DNA from: Alkalilimnicola ehrlichii MLHE-1
GTDB lineage: Bacteria; Pseudomonadota; Gammaproteobacteria; Nitrococcales; Halorhodospiraceae
Length of the DNA: 32,000 nucleotides
Direction: 5' to 3'
Assembly: GCF_000014785.1 (NCBI RefSeq)
Contig: NC_008340.1
Coordinates: 450,001-482,000, forward strand
A model generated the notes under the pieces. It worked only from the letters and a program-made list of their open reading frames with translations, was not told the DNA's origin and did no database searches. Below, in pieces: positions 10,775-23,183 of this stretch (positions within the stretch are counted from its first letter, which is position 1; each line of letters begins with the position of its first letter). The position numbers were made by a program, and so were the translations under genes.

Positions 10775-12226
10775 ATGAGCGCAGTAGTCGACCGACTGGA
10801 CATCGCCCGGCAACGGATACTGGCGCCGGCCGGGTTGGAGGAGCAGCACCTGGAGCAGGCCTTTGCCCGGCTGATGGGCCCGGGCGTCGATGCCGCCGAC
10901 ATCTATTTCCAGAGCGCCCGCAGCGAGGGCTGGGTGATGGAGGACGGCCGGGTCCGTGAAGGCACCCGCGGCATCGACCAGGGCGTGGGCGTGCGGGCGA
11001 TCAGTGGCGAGCAGAGCGGGTTCGCCTACTCGGACGAGATCGTCCTGCCGGCGCTGATGGAGGCCTCGGGCAGCGCCCGTGCCATCGCCCGCAGCGGCCA
11101 GAGCGGCCGGCTGCAGGCCTGGCACCGTGGCGAGGGCCACGCCCTCTATCCCACCGACAACCCCCTGGACGGGCTGAGCGCCGACGACAAGGTGGCCCTG
11201 CTCAAGGCCGTGGACGCCGAGGCCCGGGCCCAGGACCCGCGGGTCGAGCAGGTCATCGCCACCCTCGGTGGCGTCCACGAGACCATGCTCGTCGCCTGCG
11301 CCGACGGCACCCTGGCCGCCGACGTTCGCCCGCTGGTGCGTTTCAACGTCAGCGTCCTGGTCCGCGAGGGCGACCGGCGCGAGAACGGCATGTGCGGGGG
11401 CGGCGGCCGGGTGAGCTACAGCTTCTTCCTCGACCAGGACCGCGCCCTGGGCTATGCCCGCGAGGCCGTCCGCCAGGCCCTGGTCAACCTGGAGGCCGAG
11501 GAGGCCCCGGCCGGCTCCATGCCTGTCGTGCTCGGCCCCGGCTGGCCCGGCGTGCTGCTCCACGAGGCCGTGGGCCACGGCCTGGAGGGCGACTTCAACC
11601 GCAAGGGCACCTCCGCCTTCGCCGGACGCATGGGCGAACGTGTCGCCTCACCGCTGTGCACCGTGGTCGACGACGGCACCCTGGCCAACCGCCGCGGTTC
11701 GCTCAACGTCGACGACGAGGGCACCCCCACCCGCTGCACTACCCTGATCGAAAAGGGCGTACTCAAGGGCTTCATGCAGGACAAGCTCAACGCCCGCCTG
11801 ATGGGCACAGCCTCCACCGGCAACTGCCGGCGAGAATCCTTCGCCCACCTGCCCATGCCGCGGATGACCAACACCTACATGCTCCCCGGCCCCCACGACC
11901 CGGAGGAGATTATCCGCTCGGTGGACCACGGCCTCTACGCCGTCAACTTCGGCGGCGGCCAGGTGGACATCACCTCCGGCAAGTTCGTCTTCTCCGCTAG
12001 CGAGGCCTACCTCATCGAGAAGGGCCGGATCACCACCCCGGTCAAGGGCGCCACCCTAATCGGCAACGGCCCCGACGTCCTCACCCGCGTCAGCATGGTC
12101 GGCAACGACCTGAAACTCGACGGCGGCATCGGCGTCTGCGGCAAGGAGGGCCAGAGCGTCCCGGTCGGCGTGGGCCAGCCGACCCTCAAGGTCGACGCCC
12201 TCACCGTGGGCGGCACCCGCGGCTGA
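10775..12226 (+). CDS. tldD: metalloprotease TldD
   Basis: 483 aa with the [11 protein letters not shown] zinc motif. The TldD-typical C-terminus is [14 protein letters not shown]...[11 protein letters not shown]. Confidence 0.92.
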
Positions 12227-12272
12227 CCCACGCCCACGACCGGCGAGGGCAGCGAACCTGGAAAATGCCGGC

Positions 12273-12475
12273 GGGGGTTGCGGTCGAGGTGGTGCGATGA
12301 TCGGGCCGGGCGACTTTGCGCACCGAGCAACGCAGTAAAAAGGCGGAGAAAAGGCGCGCCTGTCCGAGCGAAGCGAGTTCGCGCCGCCGCCTTTTTACGA
12401 GTAGCGCAGGGGACCCCGAAGGGGTGCGCAAGTGGAGCCCGGCCCGATCATCGCACCACCCCGACCGCAGCCCCC
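12273..12475. repeat. nested-hairpin repeat element, copy A (38-nt arms plus 127-nt core)
   Basis: Arms 12273-12310 and 12438-12475 are inverted repeats, pairing at 36/38 positions plus one G-T. The core 12311-12437 is the reverse complement of 17975-18101 and differs from it at only about 15 of 127 positions, roughly half of them in the few nucleotides at the two core termini. Lies in the tldD-pmbA spacer. Confidence 0.8.
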
Positions 12476-12503
12476 GCAATCAGCGAAGCCAAAGGACAGC
12501 GGA

Positions 12504-13862
12504 ATGACCAATACCGTCACGCACAGCAGTCGTACCTCAGGCCTCCCCGCCAGCGCCGACATGGAGGCCCTCATCCAACAGGCCCTGGACACCGCCCGCA
12601 CCCTGGGCGCCACCGGCGCCGAGGCCGGCCTCGCCTTCGATCTCGGCCTCTCCGTCAACGTCCGCAAGGGCGAAGTCGACACCTTGGAACACCACCGGGA
12701 CCGCGGCCTCAGCGTCACCGTCTACTTCGGCCAGCGCAAGGGCAGCGCCAACACCGCCGACTTCCGCCCCGAATCCATCCGCGAGACCGTCCAGGCCGCC
12801 TGCGACATCGCCCGCTACACCTCCGAGGACCCCGCCCACGGCCTCGCCGACCCCGAACTCATGCCCCGCCAGGTCCCCGAGCTGGACCTGGAACACCCCT
12901 GGGCCCTGAACCCGGAAGAGGCCATCGACCTCGCCCGCCGCTGCGAAGCCGCCGGGCTGGCGGAAAAAGGCATCACCAACTCCGAGGGCGCGGGCGTGGC
13001 CACCCACCACACCCTCCGGGTCTACGGCAACAGCCACGGCTTCCTCGGCCACTACGCCGGCACCCGCCACAGCATGAACTGCGTCATGGTCGCCGGCGAG
13101 GGCGACCACATGCAGCGGGACTACTGGTACACCGTCGACCGCGTCCCCGAGGCCCTGGAACGGGCCGAGGACGTCGGTCGCGAGGCGGCCCGGCGCACCC
13201 TGGCGCGAATGGGCGCCCGCCAACTGGGCACCCGGCGGGTGCCGGTCCTGTTCGCCCCGCCCATGGCCCGGGGACTCATCGGCCACTTTATCGGCGCCAT
13301 TCGCGGCGGCGCCCTCTACCGCAAGGCCTCCTTCCTGCTCGACCAGTTGGGCCAGCCGGTCTTCCCGGACTTCGTGCAGATGCGGGAAGAGCCCCACCGC
13401 CCGCGTGGCCTGGGCAGCGTGCCCTTCGACCATGAGGGCGTGGCCACCCGCGAGCGGACATTGGTGCGCGACGGCGTGCTGCAGGGCTACGTGCTGGACA
13501 GCTACTCCGCCCGCCGCCTGGGCATGCAGACCACCGGCAACGCCGGCGGCGTGCACAACCTGGTGGTGGAACCAGGCCCCGACGACCAGGCCGCCCTGCT
13601 CAAGCGCATGGGGACCGGGCTACTGGTCACGGAGATGATGGGGCAGGGGGTTAACCCGGTCACCGGCGACTACTCGCGGGGGGCTACCGGCTTCTGGGTC
13701 GAGGATGGCGAGATCGCCCACCCGGTGCAGGAGATCACCGTGGCCGGCAATCTGCGGGAGATGTACGCCGGACTCACCGCGGTGGGTTGCGACGTGGACC
13801 GGCGCGGCAACATCCACACCGGCTCGCTGCTGGTGGATGCGATGACCGTCGCCGGCGAATGA
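12504..13862 (+). CDS. pmbA: metalloprotease PmbA (TldE)
   Basis: Collinear with E. coli PmbA as I recall it (RKGSANT, ARYTSEDP, GDYSRGATGFWVEDGEI, ITVAGNL). I prefer the ATG at 12504 (AAGGA upstream). The ORF-track start at 12432 lies inside the repeat arm. Confidence 0.9.
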   Translation: MTNTVTHSSRTSGLPASADMEALIQQALDTARTLGATGAEAGLAFDLGLSVNVRKGEVDTLEHHRDRGLSVTVYFGQRKGSANTADFRPESIRETVQAACDIARYTSEDPAHGLADPELMPRQVPELDLEHPWALNPEEAIDLARRCEAAGLAEKGITNSEGAGVATHHTLRVYGNSHGFLGHYAGTRHSMNCVMVAGEGDHMQRDYWYTVDRVPEALERAEDVGREAARRTLARMGARQLGTRRVPVLFAPPMARGLIGHFIGAIRGGALYRKASFLLDQLGQPVFPDFVQMREEPHRPRGLGSVPFDHEGVATRERTLVRDGVLQGYVLDSYSARRLGMQTTGNAGGVHNLVVEPGPDDQAALLKRMGTGLLVTEMMGQGVNPVTGDYSRGATGFWVEDGEIAHPVQEITVAGNLREMYAGLTAVGCDVDRRGNIHTGSLLVDAMTVAGE

Positions 13863-16703: not shown

Positions 16704-17834
16704 TCAGTCGGCGGGGCGGAGCCGCAAGAGGGGCGTGCTACTGCGGTCCGGGAGGACGTAGAGATGGCCCTTGGGACCGACCCGCACGTCGCGGATGCGC
16801 CAGCCGAGTCCTTGCAGCAGGCGCTCCTGCTCCACCACGTCGGTGCCGTCCAGGCGCAACCGTTCCAGGTGGCGGTGGGCCAGGGCCCCGACGAACAGAT
16901 CACCCTGCCACTCCGGGAAGGCGTCGGCGTAGTAGAAGGCCATGCCGGAGGGGGCGATGGAGGGCGTCCAGTGGTGGATGGGGGGTTCCATGCCTGCCAC
17001 CGGCGGGTCGGGGGCGATCTCCGGGCCGTGGTACTCGGTACCGAAGGTGGCCTCCGGCCAGCCGAAGTTGAGGCCCGGGCGCGGCAGGTTGATCTCGTCA
17101 CCGCCGCGCGGGCCGTGTTCGTGCAGCCAGAGCACCCGGGTCTCCGGGTGCAGGGTCATGCCCTGGGCGTTGCGGTGGCCGTAGCTGTAGATGGCGGGCT
17201 CGGCGCCCTCGTCATCCACGAAGGGGTTGTCCGCGGGGATGCCGCCGTCGTCGTGCAGCCGCAGCAGTTTGCCGTGGTGGTTGTCCAACTGCTGTGCGCG
17301 CTCGCGCCGGCCGCGGTCGCCCATGGTCATAAAGAGATAGCCGTCGTCGTCAAAGACGATCCGCGAGCCGAAGTGGCGGCCGCCGCCGGAGTAGGGGGTG
17401 GCCGCGTACAGCAGCTCGAAGTCACGCAGGGTGTCGCCATCCAGCACACCGCGGCCCAGGTGGGTGGTCATGCCGCCGCGGCCGTAGGCGGAGTAGGTGA
17501 GGTAGACGTAGCGGTTGGTGTCGAAGTCCGGGTGCAGGGCGATGTCGAGCATACCGCCCTGGCCGGTGGCGGCGACGTCCGGGGTGCCCTCGATACGCCG
17601 GCGCTCACCGGTCCCGGCGTCGACGCGCTGCAGCCGTCCCGGGCGCTCGGTGACCAGCAGGTCGCCGTCGGGCAGGAAGGCGAGCCCCCAGGGGTGGCTG
17701 AAGCCCTGGCCCAGGCGTTCGATCTCGAAGCGGTGGTGCTGGCTGTTCTCAACGTCGGTGGCCGGTGCCAGCGTGGGGGCGGTCAGGGCGGTGAACCCGA
17801 GGCCGATCAGGATGAGGGTGCTGCTTCTGCACAT
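16704..17834 (-). CDS. PQQ-dependent sugar (glucose/sorbosone) dehydrogenase, periplasmic
   Basis: Signal peptide MCRSSTLILIGLGFTALTAPTLAPA, then YliI-type beta-propeller motifs (PWGLAFLPDGDLLVTERPGRL, HFGSRIVFDDDGYLF, SYGHRNAQG, GGDEINL). I prefer the ATG at 17834 (GGGAG upstream). The longer ORF-track start runs into repeat copy B. Confidence 0.85.
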   Translation of the reverse strand: MCRSSTLILIGLGFTALTAPTLAPATDVENSQHHRFEIERLGQGFSHPWGLAFLPDGDLLVTERPGRLQRVDAGTGERRRIEGTPDVAATGQGGMLDIALHPDFDTNRYVYLTYSAYGRGGMTTHLGRGVLDGDTLRDFELLYAATPYSGGGRHFGSRIVFDDDGYLFMTMGDRGRRERAQQLDNHHGKLLRLHDDGGIPADNPFVDDEGAEPAIYSYGHRNAQGMTLHPETRVLWLHEHGPRGGDEINLPRPGLNFGWPEATFGTEYHGPEIAPDPPVAGMEPPIHHWTPSIAPSGMAFYYADAFPEWQGDLFVGALAHRHLERLRLDGTDVVEQERLLQGLGWRIRDVRVGPKGHLYVLPDRSSTPLLRLRPAD

Positions 17835-17927
17835 GGGCCGCTCCCGGGTTGGGCGGTGACAAGCGAATGATTGCCAGGGCCTGCCTCTAGGGTAGTCGGG
17901 TTTTGCCGCCGGGTCGCTTGCCGGGCC

Positions 17928-18148
17928 GAGGGGTGGTGTTGCTGCCGGGGCGGGGCGGTTAATGCCGTCAGGCCTCCGGATTGCGCACCCCTTCGGGGTC
18001 CCCTGCGCTACTCGCAAAAGAGCGGCGGCGCGAACTCGCTTCGCTCGGACAGGCGCGCCTTTTTTCCGCTCTTTTGCTGCGTTGCTCGGTGCGCAAAAGT
18101 CGGCCTGACGGCATTAACCGCCCCGCCCCGGCAGCAACACCACCCCTC
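17928..18148. repeat. nested-hairpin repeat element, copy B (47-nt arms plus 127-nt core)
   Basis: Arms 17928-17974 and 18102-18148 are perfect reverse complements (47/47). The core 17975-18101 is homologous to the reverse complement of 12311-12437. Lies between the ilvD stop and the dehydrogenase start. Confidence 0.8.
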
Positions 18149-18154
18149 CCCCGG

Positions 18155-20008
18155 TCAGTCCAGCAGGTCCAGGTTTCGCACCGCGCCCTTGTCCGCGCTG
18201 GTGGTCAGCTTGGCGTAGGCTTTCAGGGCCGTGCTGACCTTGCGCTGGCGGGGGGCGGCGGGCTTCCAGGCATCGCGGCCCTTGGCCGCCATGGCCTCGC
18301 GGCGGCGGGCCAATTCCTCGTCGCTGATATCGATGCGGATGCTGCGCTTGGGGATGTCGATGCAGATCCGGTCGCCCGGCTCGATCAGGGCGATGTTGCC
18401 GCCCTCGGCCGCCTCCGGGGAGACGTGGCCGATGGACAGCCCCGAGGTGCCGCCGGAGAAGCGGCCGTCGGTGATCAGCGCGCAGTCCTTGCCCAGGCCG
18501 CGGGACTTGAGGTAGCTGGTGGGGTAGAGCATCTCCTGCATGCCCGGCCCGCCCCGCGGCCCCTCGTAGCGGATGATGACCACATTGCCCTTCTTCACCT
18601 GGCCGCCGAGAATCCCCTCCACGGCGGCGTCCTGGCTCTCGAAGATCACCGCCGGCCCTTCGAAGGTGAGGATGGACTCATCCACCCCGGCGGTCTTCAC
18701 GATGCAGCCCCGCTCGGCCAGGTTGCCGTAGAGCACCGCCAGCCCGCCGTCCTTGCTGTAGGCGTGCTCCAGGGTACGGATGCAGCCGCACTCCCGGTCC
18801 AGGTCCAGTTCTTCGAAGCGGGTGGACTGGCTGAAGGCGGTCTGGCTGGGGACGCCGGCCGGACCGGCCTTGAAGAAGTCGTGCACCGCCGGGTCGTCGG
18901 TGCGTTTGACGTCCCAGCGTTCCAGGGCCTCGGCCAGGGTGTCGCTGTGGACCGTGGGCACGGTGGTGTCCAGCAGGTTGGCCCGGTCCAGCTCGCCGAG
19001 GATGCCCATGATGCCGCCGGCCCGGTGCACGTCCTCCATGTGAAAGAGCGGGGTGGCGGGGGCGACCTTGCAGAGGTTGGGCACCTTCCGGGAGAGCTTG
19101 TCGATGTCGACCATGTCGAACTTGACCTCGCCCTCCTGGGCGGCGGCCAGCAGGTGCAGCACCGTGTTGGTGGACCCGCCCATGGCGATGTCCAGGCTCA
19201 TGGCGTTGCGGAAGGCGGACCGGCTGGCGATGTTGCGCGGCAGGCAGCGCTCGTCGTCCTGCTCGTAGTAGCGCCGGGCCAGTTCCACCACCGTGCGCCC
19301 GGCATCGCGGAACAGGCGCTCGCGGTCGGTGTGGGTGGCCAGCAGCGAGCCGTTGCCCGGCAGGCTCAGGCCCAGGGCCTCGGTGAGGCAGTTCATGGAG
19401 TTGGCGGTGAACATGCCGGAGCAGGAGCCGCAGGTGGGGCAGGCGGAGCGCTCGTAGATGGCCACGTCCTCGTCGGAGACCTCCGGGTTGGCCGCGGCCA
19501 CCATGGCATCCACCAGGTCGGTGGCGATCTCCTCGCCGCTGGCCAGCTTCGTCTTGCCCGCCTCCATGGGCCCGCCGGAGACGAACACCACGGGGATGTT
19601 CAGCCGCATGGCGGCCATCAGCATGCCGGGGGTGATCTTGTCGCAGTTGGAGATGCACACCAGCGCGTCGGCGCAGTGGGCATTGACCATGTACTCCACC
19701 GAGTCGGCAATGATGTCCCGGCTGGGCAGGCTGTAGAGCATGCCGTCGTGGCCCATGGCGATGCCGTCGTCCACGGCGATGGTGTCGAACTCCTTGCCCA
19801 CGCCGCCGGCCTTTTCGATCTCTTCGATCACCAGCTGCCCCAGGTCCTTCAGGTGGACGTGGCCGGGGACGAACTGGGTGAAGGAGTTGGCGACGGCGAT
19901 GATGGGCTTGTCGAAGTCGCCATCCTTCATGCCGGTGGCCCGCCAGAGGGCGCGGGCGCCCGCCATGTTGCGACCGGCGGTGGACGTCTTGGAGCGATAC
20001 TGCGGCAT
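18155..20008 (-). CDS. ilvD: dihydroxy-acid dehydratase
   Basis: 617 aa with the IlvD signatures [12 protein letters not shown] and [11 protein letters not shown]. Full-length collinearity with enterobacterial IlvD. Confidence 0.97.
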
Positions 20009-20107: not shown

Positions 20108-20380
20108 GTCACTGCCAGCAAAGCTGGAGTGGCAGTCCAGGGCCTGTGGATCGCCGCGTCGCTGCGCTCCTCGCGATGACGGGGGTGGCACCCCCACCCG
20201 TCACTGCGAGGAGCGAAGCGACGCGGCAGTCCATGCGGCGCCTGGATCGCCCCGGGCCTGCAGCCCTTGCGATGACGGGGGTGGCACCCCCACCGTCACT
20301 GCGAGGAGCGCAGCGACGCGGCAGTCTACCGCTCTGGATCGCCACGGGCCTTCGGCCCTCGCGATGACGGGGAGGGGGTC
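20108..20380. repeat. REP/BIME-like array 1: alternating palindromic modules, about 3 units
   Basis: Recurring modules are GTCACTGCGAGGAGCG(A/C)AGCGACGCGGCAGTC and GGATCGCC(A/C)CGGGCC(TTC/TGCA)G(G)CCCT(C/T)GCGATGAC, joined by the small hairpin GGGGGTGGCACCCCCACC. It is the same family as 22756-23149 in the opposite orientation. Confidence 0.75.
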
Positions 20381-20431
20381 TTCAGCCCGCACCCGCAGGC
20401 CGCGTGGCGGCATCTCCGGCCGCCAGACGTC

Positions 20432-22737: not shown

Positions 22738-22755
22738 GCAAGCGCTGGATTGGCC

Positions 22756-23149
22756 GTCATCGCGAGGGCCGAAGGCTTTCCCCGTCATCGCGAGGGCCGA
22801 AGGCTTTCCCCGTCATCGCGAGGGCCGAAGGCCCGTGGCGATCCATGCGGGGTATGGACTGCCACGTCGCTGCGCTCCTCGCAGTGACGGTGGGGGTGCC
22901 ACCCCCCGTCATCGCGAGGGCCGAAGGCCCGTGGCGATCCAGGGCGGTAGACTGCCACGTCGGCTTCGCCTCCTCGCAGTGACGGTGGGGGCGCTACCCC
23001 CGTCATCGCGAGGGCCGCAGGCCCGTGGCGATCCAGGGCGGTAGACTGCCGCGTCGCTTCGCTCCTCGCAGTGACGGGGGGATGGGTTCGCTCCTCGCAT
23101 TGATGGGTGGGGACGGGTTCGCTCACTCGTAGTGAGTGACGGTGGGGGG
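22756..23149. repeat. REP/BIME-like array 2: two 28-bp half-units, three 94-96-bp full units, then degenerate copies
   Basis: GTCATCGCGAGGGCCGAAGGC starts at 22756, 22784, 22812, 22908 and 23002. Full units add CCGTGGCGATCC...GACTGCC(A/G)CGTCG...CTCCTCGCAGTGAC plus a G/C-tract hairpin. Decayed copies run from about 23085 to 23149. Confidence 0.75.
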
Positions 23150-23183
23150 CCTTCCCGCAGTGGTGGTGTGGGGCCGCCCGGGC

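Follow-up and report, generated by a model that had tools for sequence, protein, structure and literature searches.

A 32,000-nt stretch of the Alkalilimnicola ehrlichii MLHE-1 genome (contig NC_008340.1, positions 450,001 to 482,000 of the forward strand; hereafter the window, whose own numbering is used throughout) contains two copies of a repeat with a long predicted hairpin fold. Copy A is found between tldD and pmbA, and copy B between ilvD and the gene for a pyrroloquinoline quinone (PQQ)-type sugar dehydrogenase, in each case between two co-directional genes and with the sense strand of the repeat in the orientation of those genes. The sense strand is defined here as the strand bearing GAGCGAAGCGAG, which makes A a plus-strand copy and B a minus-strand copy. 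The two cores are 94% identical over 117 nt, lie in opposite orientation with 5.5 kb between them, and each sits within its own long inverted repeat, so that the full unit is a hairpin of 207-239 nt. The RNA folds of the full hairpins are calculated at -153 (A) and -186 (B) kcal/mol, with z-scores of -11 and -13. The features of the two loci are as follows.

10775-12226, plus: tldD
12227-12270, plus: non-palindromic spacer of copy A, absent from the empty site described below
12271-12311, plus: outer 5' arm of copy A, copy-specific and G-rich (inverted repeat I10, 41 nt, 95% complementary to 12437-12477)
12312-12436, plus: conserved core of copy A, with P1, junction, P2, A-rich bulge, P3, apical loop and small hairpin P4 (covariance-model match 12317-12418, 65.8 bits)
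12335-12346, plus: 5' strand of P2 in copy A, GTAAAAAGGCGG (core alignment, covariance-model alignment)
12361-12381, plus: near-invariant apical 21-mer of copy A, TGTCCGAGCGAAGCGAGTTCG, with a central C(GAA)G mini-hairpin
12387-12398, plus: 3' strand of P2 in copy A, CCGCCTTTTTAC (core alignment, covariance-model alignment)
12437-12477, plus: outer 3' arm of copy A (inverted repeat, fold)
about 12504-13862, plus: pmbA
16704 to about 17834, minus: PQQ-type sugar dehydrogenase
17846-17918, minus: non-palindromic inserted flank of copy B, 3' of the element in sense orientation
17919-17974, minus: outer arm of copy B, the 3' arm of the sense strand (inverted repeat I6, 56 nt, 93% complementary to 18102-18157)
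17975-18101, minus: conserved core of copy B (covariance-model match 17994-18095, minus strand, 67.4 bits)
18014-18025, minus: one strand of P2 in copy B (GCAAAAGAGCGG as read on the plus strand)
18031-18051, minus: apical 21-mer of copy B
18066-18077, minus: other strand of P2 in copy B (CCGCTCTTTTGC as read on the plus strand)
18102-18157, minus: outer arm of copy B, the 5' arm of the sense strand and G-rich there, abutting the ilvD stop codon (18155-18157)
18155-20008, minus: ilvD

Compensated changes and the family fold

The initial annotation of this DNA had reported that the interiors of the two cores differ at seven positions, six of which form three compensated pairs in a single 12-bp stem that pairs perfectly in either version, and realignment confirmed both points. 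An ungapped alignment joins core B (17975-18101, plus strand) to core A (12311-12437) in reverse complement, and the seven differences outside the ragged ends fall at 18015, 18020, 18021, 18064, 18070, 18071 and 18076. The three compensated pairs are 18015/18076, 18020/18071 and 18021/18070, in a stem that reads GTAAAAAGGCGG opposite CCGCCTTTTTAC in copy A and GCAAAAGAGCGG opposite CCGCTCTTTTGC in copy B; the seventh difference (18064, equivalent to 12348) is located in the A-rich bulge that adjoins it. This stem is the helix called P2 below, together with conserved closing pairs. When seven random substitutions were placed on the 117-nt interior with its predicted fold, three compensated pairs arose in only 6 of 2,000,000 simulations (a probability of about 3e-6), confirming that the changes in P2 are real compensation and not chance.

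Relatives of the two copies were collected by seeking the apical 21-mer (TGTCCGAGCGAAGCGAGTTCG) exactly in one genome per species, which gave 18 genome loci, and by scanning metagenomes with TGTYYGAGCGAAGCGAGTTCG, which gave at least 120 loci. The genome loci include Coralloluteibacterium, an Ectothiorhodospiraceae metagenome-assembled genome (MAG), Hydrogenovibrio halophilus, Acidobacteria, Longimicrobiaceae, Clostridiales, Oribacterium and Thermoclostridium. Taken together, the exact-motif scans and the covariance model described below recover the core at over 130 loci in many phyla, with matches in Bacteroides-like contigs from the gut, in Pasteurellaceae, Comamonadaceae, Ectothiorhodospiraceae and Clostridia, and in Acidobacteria. 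Except for a few occurrences within coding sequence that have no stems (e.g. loci L003 and L024), the 21-mer sits at the tip of a long irregular hairpin, and the stem sequences, complementary in each case, show no relationship from one lineage to the next.

The core of about 125 nt has the order P1, junction, P2, A-rich 5' bulge, P3, 21-nt apical loop, P3', P2', 3' junction, small hairpin P4 and P1', and the same architecture is found from AT-rich Clostridia to GC-rich Proteobacteria. The 5' junction is CCGAGnAnCGCAG and the 3' junction, with the same motif, CGAGnAnCGCAGG; the 5' bulge is 4-6 nt long (GGATCAGG or AGAAAA). Both junction strands (12323-12335 and 12398-12410 in the window, columns 29-41 and 109-121 of the alignment) carry the identical motif CGAGnAnCGCAG and are not complementary, and they pair as a pseudo-two-fold symmetric series of small internal loops (GA/GCA, A.A, GCA/GA) whose flanking pairs covary, a geometry that would suit a dimeric binding protein. 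At the centre of the apical loop the variants counted were CGAAGC (61), CGCAGC (2), CGTAGC (1), CCGAAGGC (2) and CCCGCAGGGC (1); the C(GNA)G mini-hairpin is kept, and some of the variants lengthen it by complementary insertions. The sequence d(GCGAAGC) and C(GNA)G loops in general form exceptionally stable DNA mini-hairpins.

RNAalifold already finds the P2 helix in a plain MAFFT alignment of 26 proteobacterial copies, in which an example pair of P2 occurs as GC in 7 copies, AU in 6, CG in 6, UA in 6 and UG in 1, with none broken, and the junction pair 34/115 is CG in 12 copies and GC in 12. A covariance model was then built from 13 gaplessly aligned copies that excluded the window, and was searched against 95 sources; it returned 78 matches, copies A and B among them. 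In the alignment of these 78 copies, which was fitted to the model structure (inflating pairing somewhat) and contains related rows, standard pairs occupy 95.2% of the cells, as against 59.4% with shuffled partners and about 41% (37-44%) with slid partners. Double changes are seen in all 24 modelled pairs, including all 11 of the P2 helix, and the covariation score is 0.705 versus 0.147. The concern that only two haplotypes of the stem might exist can also be laid aside, since P2 has 50 distinct sequences among the 58 family members with complete columns. Selection on the fold, which the initial annotation had proposed in place of drift or coding, is supported at the level of the family by the covariation in 78 copies, by the one-strand constraint considered next and by the open reading frames over the element, whose translations have no Pfam match (12278-13435 and 17871-18218 on the plus strand, 16704-18017 on the minus strand). 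On the interpretation preferred below, P2 is constrained in its pairing alone, its sequence being free to drift through compensated changes, and the apical loop and the junctions are conserved in sequence.

The two strands of copy A fold alike, at -153.2 and -152.7 kcal/mol as RNA and -90.2 and -87.9 kcal/mol as DNA, and copies A and B by themselves do not distinguish one strand from the other. Across the family, the GCGAAGC-bearing sense strand is the more stable in 75 of 88 non-redundant members (mean difference -8 kcal/mol; Wilcoxon p = 2e-11), and G-U exceeds A-C in the modelled helices by 46 to 14 (p = 4e-5). The excess of G-U together with the stability of the sense strand shows that the constraint acts on the GCGAAGC strand in single-stranded form, a result that is compatible with RNA and with single-stranded DNA alike. 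A constraint confined to one strand also speaks against its having arisen through a symmetric DNA process.

Other members of the family are organised differently from the window copies. Most of the non-window subfamilies (L036, L045, L085, L076, L133, L005 and others) have a conserved tail 80-150 nt 3' of the apical loop, made up of a U/T-rich run and, after it, a hairpin whose 5' arm is pyrimidine and whose 3' arm is purine, with a loop of GCGAAGC or CAAG. In 22 cases versus 3, the pyrimidine arm of the tail hairpin is mirrored by the run upstream of it. The C position covaries, as a U.A-U / C+.G-C triple helix would demand, and the arrangement fits such a helix or H-DNA, for which the linker may be sterically too short. 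The subfamily of the window has neither the tail nor a partner copy, and has arms instead. [quoted passage not shown] The Comamonadaceae-type composite matches a Variovorax paradoxus record from a plasmid collection, and the composite tail alone matches Burkholderia, Ralstonia, Aeromonas and Pasteurella multocida (94% over 50 nt). In the last of these (L150, NZ_CP020346.1, 835-1255), an inverted pair has the conserved tail with a different apex, so that conservation of the tail reaches further than that of the 21-mer apex; although labelled as a plasmid, the record carries xerC, dapF and clpB.

Two further clusters may be mentioned. A human-gut contig (L076, 3400-4090) has a divergent pair flanking about 300 nt with five iteron-like repeats (TTTACC/TTTACT, then 6-7 nt, then TGTAAC/TGTAAA), all located between two convergent genes. 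In Hydrogenovibrio halophilus, two subfamilies are represented by at least six copies within 4 kb of locus L013 (480-1270 and 3650-4610), along with other repeat modules, in a mosaic, BIME-like cluster around ordinary genes (a CopD-like protein and a nicotinamide mononucleotide transporter).

Insertion history and the outer arms

The TldD protein of the window is 95% identical to that of the sister species Alkalispirillum mobile, in which the tldD/pmbA spacer is only 22 nt long, versus 277 nt in the window, and the sugar-dehydrogenase/ilvD spacer 16 nt, versus 320 nt. These spacers come from four syntenic A. mobile-like loci (L142-L145), in which both sites are empty, so that the element is polymorphic in presence and absence at these positions. 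Because the same sites are empty in A. mobile, copies A and B are insertions; the alternative of two precise losses is less parsimonious. The inserted DNA consists of the core, the arms and a further 45-85 nt of non-palindromic sequence, and the starts and stops of the genuine A. mobile genes fall beyond the position of the element. A third case is provided by locus L014 (4050-4330), where an insert of about 290 nt, both arms included, breaks into the final codons of leuD and separates the usual ATGA overlap of leuD and leuB. The LeuD C-terminus reads ...LFSEPSA in L014 versus ...LFSEQERVQ in its 92%-identical relative (L148/L149). This site is empty in L147-L149, in which LeuD is 92-99% identical and leuD and leuB abut or overlap.

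At a shorter evolutionary distance, the window matches a Logan assembly at 100% identity and CP184336.1 at 99.88%, with nine single-base differences over 7.4 kb in the latter comparison. One of the nine lies in the left arm of A, at position 12287, where the window has an A that forms an A.C mismatch and CP184336.1 a G that forms a G-C pair.

The window also contains two arrays (20147-20386 and 22754-23172) of a second repeat family, with palindromic units of about 35 nt (e.g. CGTCACTGCGAGGAGCGAAGCGACGCGGCAGTCCA) that belong to the CGTC-tagged type of repetitive extragenic palindromic (REP) sequence and that also contain GCGAAGC. The syntenic spacers of A. mobile measure only about 76 and 15 nt, and these arrays, too, look like insertions.

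The outer arms of the element are almost free of mismatches over 32-56 bp. They are unrelated between copies of one genome or MAG despite a core identity of 90-97% (the window, L004, L014, L017 and L018), and they differ among the five copies from Ectothiorhodospiraceae and related bacteria that were examined, four from one MAG and L014 from another. Local alignment of the left flanks of A and B gave a score that was reached in 45 of 500 shuffles and is not significant; the two copies thus do not share a terminal repeat in the manner of a MITE. The 5' arm of copy A is paired along its full length in the predicted fold and is absent at the empty site. In five of the six copies tallied, the G-rich side of the arms is the 5' one with respect to the core, irrespective of chromosomal direction, which speaks against a core that simply flips between its arms. 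Furthermore, only 3 of the 12 P2 pairs differ between A and B, and the arms are therefore not simply evolving like P2.

Several sources for the arms were considered and rejected. Inverted duplication of the native flank was suggested by the arm of L014 that overlaps the leuD stop and the arm of B that abuts the ilvD stop, and was ruled out by the empty sites in A. mobile and L147-L149, which lack arm sequence on both sides. Descent of the arms as slowly diverged homologues had rested on a visual likeness (CGAGGTGGTG), which failed a shuffle test. As for captured phage DNA, six arms gave no match in 50,697 phage records, a database that is weak for this habitat. Finally, insertion of the core into existing REP hairpins had been suggested by the Thioalkalivibrio REP GTAGGTCGGCC...GGCCGAC (PMC2817692), and no solo hairpin of this type was present in the loci examined. 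The nearest precedent found for the arms is that some REPs lie inside longer palindromes, with flanks that fit a consensus (PMC3733652).

Conceivable sources include fill-in of variable 5' overhangs, capture of short duplexes, and very fast turnover accompanied by arm-to-arm copying. We know of no transposition mechanism that accounts for copy-specific perfect arms. One might propose, as a doubtful but specific suggestion, that the arms of 32-56 bp are made or captured anew at each insertion, for instance by the folded core priming the fill-in of a 5' overhang, or through capping of a short duplex fragment by the core. The data are compatible with this suggestion, in that the arms arrive with the insertion, are not native to the site, are nearly free of mismatches, show no relationship between copies whose cores are 90-97% identical, and have their G-rich side 5' with respect to the orientation of the core.

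Neighbouring genes and likeness to known repeats

Across the family the element lies beside housekeeping genes that have nothing in common (among them those for an FGGY kinase, ribonucleotide reductase, UvrB and ABC transporters), and no protein gene travels with it. Clustering of the open reading frames within 3 kb of about 140 loci revealed no recurrent partner protein; the candidates for a companion gene turned out to be spurious reading frames derived from the element itself and common families such as ABC transporters, and the genes between the Hydrogenovibrio copies are ordinary. A rough gene call showed no consistency of orientation relative to neighbouring genes in the family as a whole, the caller being too noisy to carry a claim. 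At the window copies, no terminator-like site was detected between 12100 and 18400 and no T-run follows either 3' arm, so that neither is an intrinsic terminator, and no promoter-like site accompanies copy A or B.

Database and literature searches have not identified the element under another name. Rfam 15 gave no match at the gathering threshold in the window plus nine related loci, except for an unrelated thiamine pyrophosphate riboswitch, and Rfam searches by E-value yielded only noise and a match to the plant MIR820 model of the generic kind expected of a long hairpin (34 bits versus a cutoff of 196). BLAST of the core found no match in plasmids, and BLAST of a family member found none in 5,426 Escherichia coli genomes at E <= 10, which separates the family from ERIC/IRU, a repeat of E. 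coli defined by a 127-bp enterobacterial consensus. The element sequences gave no exact-string match among 8 million papers, and a keyword search returned general REP/MITE papers or irrelevant ones. This is apparently a very large family of bacterial intergenic repeats that has gone undescribed.

The element works like a non-autonomous repeat of the REP/REPIN or MITE type, yet it fails the defining test of each class with which it can be compared, namely the size and tag of REPs, the shared terminal repeats of MITEs and the stem-base boxes of attC sites. The REP, BIME and REPIN sequences, which are mobilised by RAYT transposases (Y1 HUH) whose gene is typically flanked by REPs, are similarly multi-copy, intergenic, non-coding and hairpin-forming with G-T tolerated in their stems; they are often located inside operons and transcribed, and they are propagated in trans without an adjacent gene. 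The Y and Z units of BIMEs can also be likened to the head-to-head copies of two types in other taxa. However, REPs are 20-40 nt long with a GTAG or CGTC tag, a conserved stem and a short variable loop, whereas the element has a core of about 125 nt, three helices, a near-invariant 21-nt apex, variable stems and copy-specific arms, and it spans phyla. A GTAG is present at 12401-12404 in copy A, and also in B, but relatives have GCAG or GCAC and it is not conserved in the family. A REPIN has two conserved inverted REPs and a variable spacer; in the element it is the centre that is conserved, between unrelated arms.

The bacterial MITEs (ERIC/IRU, Correia/NEMIS, BOX, RUP and bcr1) resemble the element in being 100-300 nt long, non-autonomous and polymorphic for insertion, in forming robust hairpins when transcribed, and in their insertion beside or between genes. 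They differ in having terminal inverted repeats common to all copies, together with target-site duplications, whereas the arms of A and B show no significant similarity; the conserved tails of the other subfamilies do act like long terminal inverted repeats. The origin hairpins of HUH replicons (the nonanucleotide loops of circoviruses and geminiviruses, the double-strand origins of rolling-circle plasmids) and the ends of IS200/IS605 elements share an invariant apical or adjacent single-stranded sequence, a variable complementary stem and a reading of one strand. The analogy is one of function only. No gene for a Rep protein, a relaxase or TnpA lies close by, copies are dispersed over chromosomes, and the apex matches none of their nick motifs. 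With respect to an IS200/IS605-derived (PATE) origin, which would entail insertion 3' of a fixed tetra- or pentanucleotide without duplication, the roughly 140 loci have no recurrent neighbour protein, and the insertion junctions are too few and too diverged to yield a target motif. Integron attC sites, in turn, are recombined as folded single strands, with structure conserved over sequence and extrahelical bases that matter, but attC keeps its stem base (the R''/R' boxes, RYYYAAC...GTTRRRY) and varies its tip, while the element does the opposite and is accompanied by neither a cassette array nor an integrase. Moreover, the hairpin bases are copy-specific, GC-rich and free of GTTRRRY, and the flanking genes, tldD/pmbA and ilvD/sugar dehydrogenase, are in conserved synteny. 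Likenesses to 5S loop E, the RfaH ops element, IS91 target tetranucleotides and XerC arms drew no support from the analysis.

Possible explanations and their significance

Our preferred interpretation, which we hold to be probable though by no means secure, is that A and B are recently inserted copies of a non-coding, non-autonomous, REP/MITE-like mobile hairpin with a single-strand fold under selection. The near-invariant apex would be recognised by a factor acting in trans, which would propagate the element in the form of a folded single strand, and a single-stranded DNA intermediate seems the favoured form, by comparison with REP/RAYT, the ends of IS200/IS605 or rolling-circle origins. Once inserted between co-transcribed genes without a terminator, the element would be read through into an mRNA hairpin of -150 to -190 kcal/mol, which may alter the processing or stability of the message, as REP and ERIC do.

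A number of observations weigh against this interpretation. No transposase or recombinase was identified in the 32-kb window (of a 3.19-Mb genome) or in the neighbourhoods of the roughly 140 loci. The candidate direct repeats at the insertions (GGGAG at B, CAGCGAA at A and GGAG at L014) differ in length, and the empty sites have diverged. The near-invariance of the apical loop is partly a matter of ascertainment, because both collection scans required the loop; the covariance model also matched many copies without the exact 21-mer. G-A mismatches are frequent in the family alignment and fit RNA at least as well as DNA, and the window copies follow the direction of transcription while facing opposite ways relative to replication. 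The inflation of the pair counts, the tail hairpins of other subfamilies and the different apex of the P. multocida pair, all described above, must be set on the same side.

Some of these observations would be explained if the element were primarily a structured RNA, either a cis-acting intercistronic or untranslated-region element (an mRNA stabiliser or processing site) or a small RNA family, with DNA mobility secondary. The G-U excess and greater stability of the sense strand are expected on such an account, and both window copies run in the direction of the operon genes beside them despite their opposite chromosomal directions. The U-rich run and hairpin of the tail in many subfamilies have a triplex potential like that of the triple helices that protect 3' ends, G.A mismatches and pseudo-symmetric internal loops are frequent, and operons for ABC transporters are frequent hosts. 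However, a role as RNA leaves the spread of the element unexplained, and the rough, noisy gene call showed no consistent orientation relative to neighbouring genes across the family. The C(GNA)G triloops that recur in several loops are familiar as a stability motif of DNA rather than RNA; moreover, A and B have no promoter- or terminator-like site, and no Rfam family matches. We regard a primary role as RNA as possible but the less likely of the two.

A mechanical origin of the compensation, by template switching, by arm-to-arm gene conversion in a DNA quasi-palindrome or by fold-back synthesis at insertion, appears improbable for P2. Quasi-palindrome correction is an established mutational route, the outer arms look like products of copying in being nearly free of mismatches over 41-56 bp though unrelated between copies, and the single-base difference from CP184336.1 toggles A.C and G-C in the arm of A. 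Nevertheless, P2 encloses asymmetric features (the 5' bulge of 4-6 nt, G.A mismatches and the asymmetric 21-nt loop) and is flanked by the identical, non-complementary junction strands, all of which fold-back copying would erase. A symmetric DNA process further predicts G.T equal to A.C, against the observed 46 and 14, and the architecture is the same from AT-rich Clostridia to GC-rich Proteobacteria. Finally, chance, or a by-product of protein coding in the open reading frames that run through both copies, is effectively refuted by the simulated probability, by the lack of a Pfam match in the translations of these frames and by the empty sites in A. mobile; spurious frames are numerous in high-GC genomes.

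If the mobile-hairpin interpretation is correct, the element would be a structured, mobile, non-coding entity with a near-invariant 21-nt apex that is distributed across many bacterial phyla and is absent from Rfam 15. It would offer a ready covariation data set for a fold of about 100 nt, and it predicts a conserved trans-acting factor that reads the apex. The filled and empty sites would constitute natural pairs, with and without a hairpin of -150 to -190 kcal/mol in the gap separating co-transcribed genes. Of all its features, the copy-specific arms most deserve to be followed up. If they are indeed generated or captured anew, the element would represent a new kind of hairpin transposon, in which a long perfect inverted repeat of arbitrary sequence, biased towards G-richness, surrounds a conserved, protein-recognised apex, and which might supply the cell with long double-stranded hairpins of RNA or DNA.

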